Source: Eledone cirrhosa (taxonomy: Eukaryota). Taken from it: a stretch of DNA of 64,000 bases. The first letter of the stretch is position 1. The number at the start of each line of letters is the position of its first letter. Below are positions 914-54,148 of the stretch, piece by piece. The stretch is from contig OZ024740.1 of assembly GCA_964016885.1 (NCBI GenBank), forward strand, positions 18,910,001-18,974,000, given 5' to 3'. The position numbers and the translations under genes were made by a program. The notes below the pieces were generated by a model. It saw only the letters and a program-made list of their open reading frames with translations, was not told the DNA's origin and searched no databases.

Positions 914-1398
914 CGGGTATGATTTTACATTCATTTAAATTATTGACGTATTGTTTTATTGATATTTTTTATCTGTTTGGCCCGAATCTTCCTTTATCGA
1001 TTTTAAATCGTATGGTTGATTGTAGACTTGTTCTATATGTGACGGTATTTTAACGATAGTTATAGCTCTGATTCATCTGAATTATTGAGCCCTCTGCCGC
1101 TCATATCGAATTTCGTTTTTCGTGAACTCGTGCGCCGATTTTTCGATACTCGATCTTTCTAATATATTTAGCTCTGGACATAGCTATCCACCAGTTAATT
1201 TTATTGCTCATTTTTTGTCGATTCTATTGAGTGATGAATAGCTTTTGTTTTATTTTAACATGTCTATTGAGCACTCTAATTCGATATGTGTATTTCCACA
1301 TTCACTCGAATTGTTTTCGCGGATATAGGGGTCATCTCCCTTGTCTAATGCCATGTGCGTTTTTCACCGCTAGTTGACTCCTCTGCCGCCAGGAAAAA

Positions 1399-1533
1399 AC
1401 TCGTTGACAACGTAAACTCCGTTCCACTTATTCTAGTAGGCTTTTATATTTATATGTGAGCTGATAGAGTACAGTCTAAGGATTTACAGAAACCCATGAA
1501 GCTAGATTTAACACCTTTCTAGTGGGTCCGGGT
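1399..1533 (+). ncRNA. Hammerhead ribozyme, U3-A8 core variant, long stem II
   Basis: Stem I ACTCG/CGGGT; core TTGACAA 1404-1410; stem II C-GTAAA...TTTAC-A (78 nt); GAAA 1489-1492; stem III CCCA/TGGG with inner CTAGA/TCTAG; GTC 1526-1528. Confidence 0.75.
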
Positions 1534-2013
1534 ATGATTTTACATTCATTTAAATTATTGACGTATTGTTTTATTGATATTTTTTATCTGTTTGGCCCGA
1601 ATCTTCCTTTATCGATTTTAAATCGTATGGTTGATTGTAGACTTGTTCTATATGTGACGGTATTTTAACGATAGTTATAGCTCTGATTCATCTGAATTAT
1701 TGAGCCCTCTGCCGCTCATATCGAATTTCGTTTTTCGTGAACTCGTGCGCCGATTTTTCGATACTCGATCTTTCTAATATATTTAGCTCTGGACATAGCT
1801 ATCCACCAGTTAATTTTATTGCTCATTTTTTGTCGATTCTATTGAGTGATGAATAGCTTTTGTTTTATTTTAACATGTCTATTGAGCACTCTAATTCGAT
1901 ATGTGTATTTCCACATTCACTCGAATTGTTTTCGCGGATATAGGGGTCATCTCCCTTGTCTAATGCCATGTGCGTTTTTCACCGCTAGTTGACTCCTCTG
2001 CCGCCAGGAAAAA

Positions 2014-2148
2014 ACTCGTTGACAACGTAAACTCCGTTCCACTTATTCTAGTAGGCTTTTATATTTATATGTGAGCTGATAGAGTACAGTCTAAGGATTT
2101 ACAGAAACCCATGAAGCTAGATTTAACACCTTTCTAGTGGGTCCGGGT
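2014..2148 (+). ncRNA. Hammerhead ribozyme (second copy in the 615-bp array)
   Basis: Same sequence as 1399-1533, shifted by 615. Confidence 0.75.
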
Positions 2149-2779
2149 ATGATTTTACATTCATTTAAATTATTGACGTATTGTTTTATTGATATTTTTT
2201 ATCTGTTTGGCCCGAATCTTCCTTTATCGATTTTAAATCGTATGGTTGATTGTAGACTTGTTCTATATGTGACGGTATTTTAACGATAGTTATAGCTCTG
2301 ATTCATCTGAATTATTGAGCCCTCTGCCGCTCATATCGAATTTCGTTTTTCGTGAACTCGTGCGCCGATTTTTCGATACTCGATCTTTCTAATATATATA
2401 TATATATATATATATATATATATATATATATATATATTGAGAGAGAGAGAGAAAGATTATATATTTCATTATTTGTAGACCACGAAAAGATCATTTTTCC
2501 GAGAGAATTTCCATCCAACTGAATAACTCAATACACGTAAAGTGTAAAATATTTGAAAAGTTATATAATTCACAAAATTAAACTATTTATTTCTAATTTC
2601 ATCAAACCTTTGAAATTGCTACAATTCCTTGATTTTTATTCGTTTCTTTTTCAAAATAATTTCTGCCAGCAACTACTACAAATGGGTGCAGCAGTGTTGT
2701 GCGGTTAACAAGTTCACTCCACAAACATGTGATTCCGGCTTCAGTCTCTATGTGGCACCTTGTGAAATGTCTTTACAAT

Positions 2780-2932
2780 CCCAGTGTATTACTGGTACTT
2801 TATTTTATCGACCCCGTAAGGATGAAAGGGATAGTTAACCTCGTCGGGATTTGAACTCAGACCGTAAAAGGGACGTAACTATGCTAGAAAGCATGTCGTC
2901 CAACCCTCTACCGATGCTGCCAATTCACCGTC
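2780..2932 (-). mobile_element. SINE (abundant family with GCCTTTCATCCTTACGGGGTCGATAAAATAAAGTACCAG core)
   Basis: Same core at about 4146-4300, 11313-11450, 12681-12868, 13915-14075, 16699-16876, 28365-28544, 30344-30452, 36908-37017; head only at 46095-46184; B-box-like GAGTTCAAATCC. Confidence 0.75.
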
Positions 2933-3084
2933 TTAGACTATATACAATATTATATATAGACTATATAAAATATTGTCATAGTGTATATAATGTCTATTCT
3001 TGGTCAGTTAGAATGAATCATATTTAACTGGGTAATGTCTAAAAACATCTGACTGATAAAATGACAAGTTAATCAATCATATTG

Positions 3085-50804: not shown

Positions 50805-50886
50805 ACTCCCTGATGACGCAATGAATTCTCGACAGTTAGATTACGTAACTGTCTTTATCCCATTGCAGAAACTAATTAGTTGGAGT
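50805..50886 (+). ncRNA. Hammerhead ribozyme (second copy in the 554-bp array)
   Basis: Same sequence as 50251-50332. Confidence 0.85.
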
Positions 50887-51071
50887 GAAAATTTAAGTAA
50901 GTTAAAATTAAAAAAAAAATTTTTTTTTAAAGATTTTCTTATTTTACGTCTGTTATATTATTGTTCTGCATCCTCCTGCATTGAACCACCTAGGTACTAT
51001 GACATAACCTGTGTATTTGCTGGCATTAGTGTACATCTGTGCGCTTATGTTAGTAGATATATATATATATA

Positions 51072-51735
51072 TATGAAAGACGTAAAATAAGAGAATTATG
51101 AAAATTGACTTACTAAAATTTCACTCCAACTAATTAGTTTCTGTAAGGGAATAAATATGGTTACGTTACGTAATCATAGAGAATCCTTATGTCATCAGGG
51201 AGTCTATTCTCAGCTAAGTTCCTAGGCAATGCGTGGACACAGGGAACTCATATAAAAATAATTCAGTGGATGCAAAAAAGCGAGCGGGACTAAATTCCAG
51301 GACATTGAAAAAATTCACTTCCTACTTGGTCAGTGGCAAATTCAAAAGAATCAATCACGTGACACTGAGGTTAATAAGTGAGGAGTGGGATGCTATTAAG
51401 ACAGCGGCCTGACCACTACCATGAACCATAGTAGTAATTTCTGCAAATTTTTACTCAACAAATAATTTGGAGATAATTATAAAGAATTAGTATATCTACC
51501 AACATATGTATACAGATGCATACCTATGCTAGCAAATATATAGGTTTTGTCTTAGTAACTTTGTCGTTCAATGCAAGGGGTGCAGAACAATTATATGAAA
51601 GACGTAAAATAAGAGAATTATGAAAATTGACTTACTTACTAAAATTTCACTCCAACTAATTAGTTTCTGTAAGGGAATAAATATTAGCATAGGTATGCAT
51701 CTGTATACATATGTTGGTAGATATACTAATTCTTT
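51072..51735 (-). mobile_element. 522-bp partial tandem repeat, diverged relative of the 554-bp unit, HHR at 51123-51203
   Basis: ATGAAAGACGTAAAATAAGAG at 51073 and 51595; minus strand ACTCC-CTGATGA-CA.TAAGG..CCTTA.CA-GAAA-CTAATTAG-TT-GGAGT; terminal inversion at 51686-51735. Confidence 0.8.
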
Positions 51736-53228
51736 ATATATATATATATATATATATATATATATATATATATATATATATATATATATATATATATATA
51801 TATATATATATATATATATATATATATATATATATATATATATATATATATATATGTATATATATATATATATGTATATATATATATATATATGTATATA
51901 TATATATAAATGTATTGAGTACCTTACTTGCTGTGTTTACTCCCGATTGAACCCGGGATAAACTTATATATATACATACATATATATATATATATATATA
52001 GAGAGAGAGAGAATAGAATGAAACAAAATTTCATTTCTCACTCTTAGTACGGCAGTTACTTAAATGTAAGTATGTATGTATGTATACGTACATACATATA
52101 TGTATACAGACGTACAGTAGTATGTATATATATACATACATGCACACATATATATGCACGTATCAGTTTACCGAACATTTATTATAATGTTCGATTTGTT
52201 TGTTTGTAAACAAACAAACAGCCCGAATTACGCCGTACAGTGTTTAGGCAACCACGTCACCTTTTTGTTCAACACTGACATTAATATTATTATTGATGAT
52301 GTAATTGAATTTGTAAATTTGCCGGTTACATATATATTTTTTTAACAGTTTCCGAAGATATAATAGAGTTAACATCGTATTTAAAATTGAATGGCACTGC
52401 TTTTAGTGTTCAGAAATTTTTGGACAACTCTATCAGTGAAACAATTGTTAGACTGCAAATAAATCCCCTTTTTGTACTGTTGACTATCTTATTCTCCACT
52501 TTTTCAATTATATATATATATATATATATAGGAGGAAGTTATAGTTCACTTGAAGCATTGTGTAATGAGGTATAAACGTTTGAATTTGTAAAGCCAAACA
52601 ATGCAGGTATGGACATAGAATAAAAATGCAAATGCAAAAGATATTGTTGACAATTAGTCTTTTACCTTAGATTTATTTAAATGTACTTAATTTTCGAGAT
52701 AATATCTCTTCTTCGGATGGAAGTAAAGCGGTTAAACCAGTGTTCTAAATAGCTTGCCAAGTCAAGCTGACAGGAAATAGTATAGAGTATCTGTTCTATC
52801 TCTAATGTCAAAGAGGTAAGGTTAGGTGGATAAAGAGTAGTCTCTCTTTGAAAGGGTTTTTTGTACATGTTCAATTAACACTTAGAATTTAATATTCTAT
52901 CATACTATTTCATTATAATACCATTATATATTTTAAAGGATTGTAAATAAAACGAGTAAATCAAACAAAGTTGGAATTCCTCTTATTAATATAATCTTCT
53001 ATACACAATCATACACACCCGTGTATATTTACCTATCTATATCTATCTCTCTCTCTCTCTCTCTCTCTCTCTATATATATATATATATATATATATATAT
53101 ATATATATACATATATATATATGTATATATATATATATATATATATATATATATATATATATATATATATATATATATATATATATATATATATATATAT
53201 ATATATATATTATATATATATATATATC

Positions 53229-53392
53229 AACGAGTAGGACCCGACGGCTAATTCTGGACTGAATTAGCCGTCGAAACGGCTTGAGCTCAGGCGTCGGGGT
53301 CTTACTCGTCCCTATTACCCACTCTACTACCCTAAGTATTGAGTACTTTGGTGCGTTATGGACCACCTGGTTCCTTACCACATTTCCTTCGT
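53229..53392 (+). repeat. Family-B element with an HHR scaffold lacking CUGANGA
   Basis: ACGAGTAGGACCC-GACGGCTAATTC..GAATTAGCCGTC-GAAA-CGGC..GGCG-TC-GGGGTCTTACTCGT. Confidence 0.65.
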
Positions 53393-53406
53393 TATATATA
53401 ATTATA

Positions 53407-54148
53407 TATAAATTAATATGTATGTGATGAAACACAGATACCAACACATCTGTATATATATTGCAAAAGAAAAATTTAGCCAGATTGAAGTATACTAATT
53501 AATTAGTATACTTCAATCTGGCTAAATTTTTCTTTTGCAATATATATACAGATGTGTTGGTATCTGTGTTTCATCACATACATATTAATTTATACACTGC
53601 TCAGGGGATATTTTTCCTCATTCGAGCTGATTCCATTGTAAAAGAATTCATTACCTTATTAATTTTAACTGCTCCTAGTTTGAGCTGCAAGCCGCCTCAT
53701 ATATACGACTGTTATTTCTAGCAGTACGGTTATGAGACTAGTTAGATACTGTAAAGCCATGTGCGTCACGCAGTCTTTTAAATTATTTAGAAGTGAAGCA
53801 TATCAATTTGTCTCTGGATGTTTACTGAGGAGCGCAGGACATGATATTCCTACACTTATTTAACTCGAAACATATTTGGATCTTAATGTCTAAACTTATC
53901 TACGGAACAGGTTTGATTTTGACAATACAGCTCGTCTACGTTGATTTATTATTTTAAATCGATATGGACAAACTGTAGTATAATAATTAGTATACTTCAA
54001 TCTGGCTAAATTTTTCTTTTGCAATATATATACAGATGTGTTGGTATCTGTGTTTCATCACATACATATTAATTTATACACTGCTCAGGGGATATTTTTC
54101 CTCATTCGAGCTGATTCCATTGTAAAAGAATTCATTACCTTATTAATT
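53407..54148 (+). mobile_element. 484-bp partial tandem repeat (1.3 copies) with a 5' fold-back palindrome and an HHR
   Basis: AATTAGTATACTTC at 53501 and 53985; perfect palindrome 53407-53594; homologous to the minus strand of the 567-bp unit. Confidence 0.85.
53820..53895 (+). ncRNA. Hammerhead ribozyme motif
   Basis: GTTTA-CTGAGGA-G..(AGGA/TCCT)..C-GAAA-CAT..ATG-TC-TAAAC; base of stem II is weak. Confidence 0.7.

Follow-up and report, generated by a model that had tools for sequence, protein, structure and literature searches.

Hammerhead-bearing tandem units with Penelope-like insertion anatomy in Eledone cirrhosa, and a possible record of repeated copying from circular RNA

How do short arrays of a non-coding ribozyme unit come to lie, again and again, beside (TA)n tracts? 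The question is raised by 64,000 nucleotides of the Eledone cirrhosa genome (C1:18,910,001-18,974,000, contig OZ024740.1, within the 3.0 Gb assembly GCA_964016885.1; hereafter the window), in which an earlier annotation made from the letters alone, the sequence-only reading, had described seven partial tandem arrays lacking open reading frames (ORFs), each with a hammerhead ribozyme motif per unit, and had derived them from self-cleaving monomeric or circular RNAs mobilised by Penelope-like elements (PLEs). The units, named after their array periods in nt (U615, U617, U593, U567, U554, U522 and U484), are best explained as dispersed non-coding hammerhead repeats, that is, non-long-terminal-repeat (non-LTR) retrozymes, with 3' ends fixed on (TA)n. 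They were probably inserted by a PLE protein of the Hydra clade, which in the case of U615 would copy one circular monomer RNA for many laps.

Self-BLAST of the window recovered all seven arrays with the periods and coordinates first given (Table 1), the copy numbers of 1.2-2.4, and fold-back inversions in several of them; (TA)n adjoins every array, always at the sense 3' end. The longest ATG ORF per unit is 35-91 aa, the longest stop-to-stop frame among the units is 134 aa (in U593), and GC content is 0.33-0.43. The claim of at least five unrelated lineages did not survive local alignment scored against shuffled sequences: U615 and U617 (z 14), U567 and U484 (z 37), and U554 and U522 (z 137) are homologous, and together with U593 these three pairs therefore make four lineages. 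The period of 484 is a deletion local to the window in a family whose unit is 518 nt (U518), and a truncated copy of an eighth family, U594, had been missed.

The genome was searched with six of the units, the best 26-40 first-look candidates per unit being scored, and U522 was covered genome-wide through a pattern search only. All six are dispersed, multi-locus repeats (517, 3754, 2189, 1285, 2211 and 1030 first-look candidates). Each family uses one to three fixed sense 3' ends, and variation is confined to the 5' ends. U615 ends at position 253-254 followed by TA in 51 of 52 arrays, the remaining one being broken by an assembly gap. The 3' ends fall in one 10-nt bin in 27/29 U617 and 22/24 U594 loci, and at two sites in U593 (22+7 of 30), U567 (26+2 of 28), U518 (16+8 of 29) and U554 (13+5 of 23). 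TA follows directly in 25/29 (U617), 30/30 (U593), 28/28 (U567), 20/23 (U554), 28/29 (U518) and 24/24 (U594) loci. These end sites are AT-rich, lie 70-300 nt beyond the predicted cut with alternative sites 70-170 nt apart, and match (TA)n at a few bases. Inverted 5' arms occur in 17/30 U593, 20/28 U567, 13/23 U554 and 19/29 U518 loci and are rare in the U615 lineage (U615 1/52, U617 1/29, U594 0/24). Fixed 3' ends, 5' truncation, partial tandems and inverted 5' arms constitute Penelope-like insertion anatomy, as set out in section 6 of PMC8557442, and the fixed ends fit the internal initiation reported in PMC11167929. The idea of dispersed, non-autonomous, retroposed hammerhead units stands, and two observations that could have refuted it did not arise, the units being multi-locus and the ribozyme stems covarying around cores that are kept. 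The argument of the sequence-only reading that variable start points indicate circular templates needs recasting, since variation is limited to the 5' ends, the 3' (priming) ends being fixed; a circle is supported for U615 on other grounds.

Those grounds come from a comparison of 52 U615 arrays holding 321 units, made up of best hits and the first arrays listed from a pattern search, after a stray distant match in L190 had been removed (L-numbers denote genomic loci compared with the window arrays). The 5' ends of 51 arrays are uniform around the unit (Kolmogorov-Smirnov, KS, p 0.99), with one of the 51 at +1, and 50 array lengths are exponential with a median of 4.9 and a maximum of 18.7 units (KS p 0.85). 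All 322 unit junctions are length-exact. The units of an array share a single haplotype string, of which 18 occur in all (17 if the part-covered L309 is set aside); were units drawn independently from the haplotype pool, neighbours would agree in about 16% of cases. In 13 arrays there are 5-18 identical full units. Single-unit changes amount to 2.2e-4 per base, a value within the range of in-vitro RT (reverse transcriptase) substitution rates in PMC11331410. Single-unit substitutions are concentrated in the 5'-most 615 nt, at about 3.6 times the density found elsewhere (12 in 25,404 vs 21 in 159,453). The Roll-Seq logic of the same paper, by which a change in all laps belongs to the template and a change in one lap to the RT, carries over to these arrays. 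With about 0.14 single-unit changes per unit, excision and re-copying of monomers would be expected to fix a new variant in roughly one daughter array in seven; such array-wide fixation is seen in 4 of 23 arrays of the commonest haplotype.

Three columns are mixed within an array: A484 is read T, T, C, A across the units of L303, G561 is read T in 5 of 13 units of L288, and T262 is read C in 6 of 8 units of L183. Two of these columns are invariant in all other arrays and the third varies in one unit of one other array, and about 0.03 same-column pairs are expected by chance. Their simplest cause would be a lesion in a single RNA that was read repeatedly. Circular templates for U615 are supported jointly by the homogeneity of its arrays, the exactness of the junctions, the exponential length distribution and these private mixed columns.

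The route would run as follows. An array would be transcribed, and successive hammerheads would release monomers that a ligase closes into circles, by analogy with published retrozymes. A PLE endonuclease would nick (TA)n, and its RT would begin copying from a fixed AT-rich position 70-300 nt beyond the cut, in keeping with the TA-joined ends observed. The enzyme would then travel round the presumed circle and stop at random, as the 5' ends, lengths and junctions of U615 suggest, and priming off the other strand may produce the inverted arms that are seen. In this way a change that arose in a single source unit would come to be carried by all units of a daughter array, and successive laps would read a damaged template base differently.

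The ribozymes themselves bear out in part the sequence-only reading, which had assigned one type I hammerhead to each unit and called only that of U567 degenerate. The motif is well formed in U615, U593, U554 and U522 and has a short stem II in U484; U617 proved weak as well, with a 2-bp stem I like that of U567. The U617 core has U3 with G8, replaced by A8 in 4 of 30 copies. Core halves are separated by 35-78 nt. An Rfam scan of the window gave no hammerhead among the 150 of 197 matches listed, a scan at E<=10 over 50190-51700 and 914-2390 gave none either, and scans close to the canonical core overlooked the U3-A8 motifs. Since long-insert U3-A8 ribozymes escaped Rfam here, such families may be undercounted in other genomes. 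The core first read in U615, CTGATAGA, was rejected in favour of TTGACAA.

A ribozyme descriptor, composed after the motifs had been seen, accepts U615, U554, U522, U594 and one Hydra pseudo-LTR (pLTR), with 0-4 of 300 shuffles accepted per unit. It rejects the 3' copy of U593 (the other copy is accepted), U484, U617, U567 and the clipped pLTR of the window. A stronger test was one of prediction, in which the 5' half of the U594 ribozyme was written down in advance from the truncated copy at 34378-34665; full copies read CCCG TTGATAA C ACGAC and match the prediction in stem I (pairing with CGGG), core and C10.1, with stem II (GTCGC) 4/5 paired. Ribozyme stems covary and cores are kept: among 16 sequences of the U554 lineage 96% of cells are paired and 7 of 28 pairs are changed on both sides, a level reached by 0/500 shuffles. 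Stem I and core belonged to the search pattern for that lineage, so their constancy is no evidence. Two exact ribozyme patterns match 1,525 and 3,961 places genome-wide.

The long insert is predicted to fold as a hairpin atop stem II, leaving a 5' bulge able to pair just upstream of stem I, and the motifs combine an extended stem II with a likely stem I/II pseudoknot. Candidate pairings are GAGAAT/ATTCTC and TGAGGT/ACCTCG, and in the 615 clade GAACTG/YAGTTC, GAACTA/TAGTTC and GAGCAA or GAACAA/TTGTTC; a generic pseudoknot test is weak per unit (p 0.03-0.30), and in the U554 lineage just 1 of 6 pairs shows two-sided change. The U615 haplotype with the longest arrays (L283-L290, L303-L320) carries 482A>T, by which one predicted pseudoknot pair is lost. 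Scored against 12 shuffles per unit, circular folds of the monomers gave z -2.1 to -8.2 across the seven units, which are accordingly predicted to be self-paired, and z -0.3 for U594.

Table 1. Positions of the arrays, hammerhead motifs and Hydra-type PLE remnants in the window
Feature	Position	Strand	Remarks
U615 array	914..2397	+	2.41 units; starts at +1 of predicted cleavage site, stops ~250-254 nt beyond on (TA)n
U615 hammerhead	1399..1533; second copy 2014-2148	+	type I; U3-A8 core TTGACAA, C10.1.A11.1, extended stem II; predicted cut 1528/1529
U617 array	27263..28010	+	1.21 units; homologous to U615
U617 hammerhead, weak	27678..27786	+	core TTGATGA, 8-bp stem II, stem I just 2 bp
3' pLTR of Hydra-type PLE	28041..28364	-	hammerhead 28233-28362, ~100 nt between core halves; inverted copy 29888-30017
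GIY-YIG endonuclease remnant, same Hydra-type PLE	29368..29628	-	Pfam GIY-YIG E 0.0099, below curated cut-off
U593 array	31538..32360	-	1.39 units
U593 hammerheads	32202-32291, 31609-31698	-	U3-A8 core; predicted cut 32207/32206; palindromic stem III ACTACGTAGT
U594, 5'-truncated copy	34378..34665	-	eighth family; 594-nt unit, U615 lineage
U567 array	48044..48711	-	1.18 units; inverted arm reaches 48954
U567 hammerhead, degenerate	48338-48430	-	U3-A8 core; stem I 2 bp
U554 array	50201..51061	+	1.55 units
U554 hammerheads	50251-50332, 50805-50886	+	C3-G8 core; predicted cut 50327/50328; palindromic stem III; predicted pseudoknot GAGAAT/ATTCTC
U522 array	51072..51682	-	1.17 units; ~73% identity to U554
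U522 hammerhead	51123-51203	-	C3-G8 core
U484 array	53501..54148	+	1.34 units; 518-nt family unit with 34-nt deletion; inverted arm 53407-53500
U484 hammerhead	53820-53895	+	C3-G8; complete core and stem I, stem II 1-2 bp

The candidate partner is a Hydra-type PLE, of which the window holds two remnants. First-look candidates for its GIY-YIG remnant number 45,746 genome-wide, and an 801-aa frame (L246) with RWR, DKT, YRDD, CxCx5C and YIG motifs appears to fit the Hydra clade as defined in section 11 of PMC8557442. Most of its copies terminate on TA at +66 or +196/197, and the hammerhead of the pLTR has the same C.A pair as the units, with an insert of ~100 nt. A homolog search with the Hydra-type RT returned 29 proteins, all without name or taxon. 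Insertion of the units by a Hydra-clade protein is likely, not proven. A dispersed SINE-like repeat of 100-190 bp (2778, 4204, 12669, 16696, 28360, 30340, 36903, 46094) has one copy at ~28364-28545 that interrupts the Hydra-type 3' region.

That the units are merely truncated ends (pLTRs) of coding PLEs is very improbable as a full account. The abundance of Hydra pieces in the genome speaks for it, as does the resemblance of Xenopus retrozymes to pLTRs (bioRxiv 10.64898/2026.07.22.740005); against it, the units are ORF-less and repeat head-to-tail with periods of 518-617 nt, and Hydra ORF pieces occur in just 14 of 223 unit loci, with no unit contiguous with such an ORF in the eight of these that were inspected. 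For multi-unit arrays it is already contradicted; descent of the units from a pLTR is likely. A long linear transcript reading through an array already in place, with ribozymes that do not cut, could instead have served the same elements and enzyme as template, which is unlikely. Such a template would account for exact junctions, for 5' ends at random positions and for the fact that most families have arrays of 1-2 units; the anole PLE used mainly unprocessed RNA in vitro (PMC11167929), and stem I is 2 bp in two families and predicted to be unformed. A linear copy, however, never exceeds its source in length and leaves a single-unit change single. Fixation throughout the array is seen for about 17 haplotypes, several of them in arrays 7-19 units long, so that a linear template needs a one-unit bottleneck and re-expansion for each, and the column read three ways in the four units of L303 would demand a mosaic source.

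Slightly less probable again is the satellite-birth model discussed in bioRxiv 10.64898/2026.07.22.740005, in which insertions of 1-2 units later grew into long arrays in DNA through slippage or unequal exchange. Such growth gives homogeneous arrays, exact junctions and two-state mosaics, and when restricted to the first half of array life it fits the variant spectrum (P 0.3-0.5). Steady, lifelong growth, by contrast, predicts 10-12 multi-unit variants in a toy simulation where 3 are seen (P 0.003-0.007); the longest arrays belong to the youngest family, U615, while the older U617 never exceeds 2.4 units in 29 loci; and growth in DNA yields no two distinct derived bases at one column. More doubtful still is re-use of one linear monomer by an RT jumping from its 5' to its 3' end, for which a covalent circle would be unnecessary. 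One haplotype per array and private mixed columns are predicted equally well by such jumping, of the 51 U615 5' ends, 7 are found no more than ~20 nt from the cut, where 3.4 would be expected (P 0.051), and U617 5' ends bunch just past it (KS p 0.29); a pile-up at the cleavage site was considered and dropped, being significant in neither family. Template jumps usually leave untemplated bases, and the 322 junctions show no base gained or lost, with a stop at +1 in a single array.

Several observations weigh against many-lap copying of a circle by a Hydra-type enzyme. Sampling was not random, the arrays being best hits or those that headed a listing. In the families other than U615 arrays have medians of 0.9-1.9 units, and units of the same array (n=0-11 pairs per family) are not clearly more alike than units of different arrays; most insertions there hold 1-2 units, for which a circle is not required. 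The toy simulation is compatible with early, fast growth in DNA (P 0.3-0.9), and errors of assembly or polishing could have produced the two-state mixed columns. U617 and U567 have spread though stem I is 2 bp, stem I is predicted to be unformed in the circular monomer (P<=0.01 in 5/6; ~0.35 in U554), and pairing in the U615 clade is modest (79.5% of cells, reached by 14/500 shuffles, with five rows out of register). In PMC11167929 the PLE ribozyme was dispensable for insertion in vitro. No unit resembles the one Hydra pLTR compared (z -1.5 to 2.7), and the partner search was confined to the Hydra clade, whose copy here is a candidate of putative intactness and activity. A search for RNA datasets with U615 listed none; contigs from four of seven listed runs contain a 615-nt go-back joint in three, which is uninformative because tandem DNA yields the same joint.

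Circular templates copied by a Hydra-clade protein remain the preferred explanation for U615, and the stronger proposition has about an even chance: that each long U615 array is a natural single-molecule concatemer, in which a Hydra PLE RT made up to 19 germ-line laps round one circular ribozyme RNA and wrote the template's damaged bases into the chromosome. If so, the genome would hold an in-vivo record of rolling-circle reverse transcription, of RT error rate, of processivity (mean ~2.8 kb beyond the minimum) and of RNA lesions. Since 2020 it has been hypothesised that PLEs copy retrozyme circles into tandem DNA. The U615 family is very young and combines a fixed priming site with haplotypes specific to each array and private mixed columns. 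With these properties it makes circle copying and tandem rebuilding directly testable; it supplies ready constructs, and a candidate enzyme clade is named.

Both the reading of non-LTR retrozymes as non-autonomous PLEs and the circle model have already been published. PMC7229834 describes non-LTR retrozymes and their circles and proposes PLE-driven reverse transcription of circles into tandem cDNA; bioRxiv 10.64898/2026.07.22.740005, with no mollusc sampled in the available part, reads retrozymes as non-autonomous PLEs and favours local DNA amplification. The present units share with the metazoan retrozymes of both reports non-coding tandem organisation, a type I hammerhead motif per unit, though a weak one in U617 and U567, GC below 50% and coexisting PLEs. 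They differ in size (518-617 nt vs 170-400 in PMC7229834 and 51-972 in the preprint), in the 35-78 nt between core halves and in the often U3-A8 core; fixed priming sites, (TA)n targeting and per-array haplotypes are not mapped in the available text of either. They do not show the type III hammerhead in LTRs that marks the plant LTR retrozyme, the motifs being type I and the units head-to-tail. New in this case are the architecture of the ribozymes, the connection with Hydra-type targeting and, at the level of arrays, a probable record of repeated copying. In a literature search neither per-array haplotypes nor mixed columns came up as a rolling-circle record, though supplements could hold such elements, above all the Hydra and hammerhead files that accompany PMC8557442 and the repeat library belonging to PMC13282606, an octopus repeat annotation in whose available text the word ribozyme was not found.

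Among PLEs, the units resemble the Hydra clade of C-terminal EN+ elements (PMC8557442) in (TA)n target, 5' truncation, partial tandems, inverted 5' arms, hammerheads near the 3' end and two alternative 3' ends; they are unlike it in being non-coding, in lacking detectable homology to the one pLTR compared and in forming arrays of up to 19 units. Poseidon_Ac (PMC11167929) shares internal RT starts, extension of both strands of AT-rich DNA and genomic ends on start sites. Its start is AC-rich and non-homologous to the target, whereas the starts of the units are AT-rich and match (TA)n at a few bases, and the units differ further in their alternative sites 70-170 nt apart and non-coding template. 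Chlamys elements such as MRC1 (PMC8557442) are likewise non-autonomous PLEs with multicopy head-to-tail insertions; they generally resemble autonomous 3' ends and their clade mostly lacks canonical hammerheads, unlike the units. The stem I/II pseudoknot, found in ~40% of hammerheads (PMC3088659), and the U3-A8 core, known from PLE hammerheads (PMC4209133), have both been described. Here they are joined with a hairpin-extended stem II in several lineages without detectable shared sequence.

Further features surround the arrays. The U567 insertion sits inside an inverted duplication (47777-49237) that takes in ~220 nt of flank past TA with two differences, which suggests a DNA-level fold-back; among the 380 loci compared, no other shows such a flank-including duplication. 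A short two-armed TA-flanked element lies at 721-913, 47393-47552 and 53242-53423 and at L351-L380, with 1,209 candidates genome-wide; its longer copies carry a U3-A8 hammerhead-like motif with stem I ACCCC/GGGGT (by eye). U615 5' ends at L028, L181, L183, L312 and window 913/914 join other retrozyme-like units without TA, through nesting or template switch. That U615 (914 on) and the left element (721-913) were two arms of one event was dropped; the left element ends there at its own second 3' end, and nesting therefore accounts for the join. Short hammerhead motifs of other TA-flanked repeats were noted at 572, 12570(-), 30971(-), 34961(-) and 49582(-), that at 12570(-) being a compact PLE-type hammerhead with an 8-bp stem I.

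Elsewhere, a 15-bp satellite of ~626 copies fills 54619-64000, with several frames open for >500 aa and one reading as RADLN pentapeptide repeats. An 845-aa open frame at 7472-10009 (+) encodes a non-LTR RT (RVT_1, zf-RVT). Three broken related LINE copies at 18698-23983, 37172-39700 and 39659-45698 contain endonuclease- and RT-like frames (by eye), the 3' 1.5 kb of two of them being 98% alike. An LTR-type RT fragment (by eye) lies at 17381-18550 and a tRNA-Asp(GTC) gene at 3373-3447.

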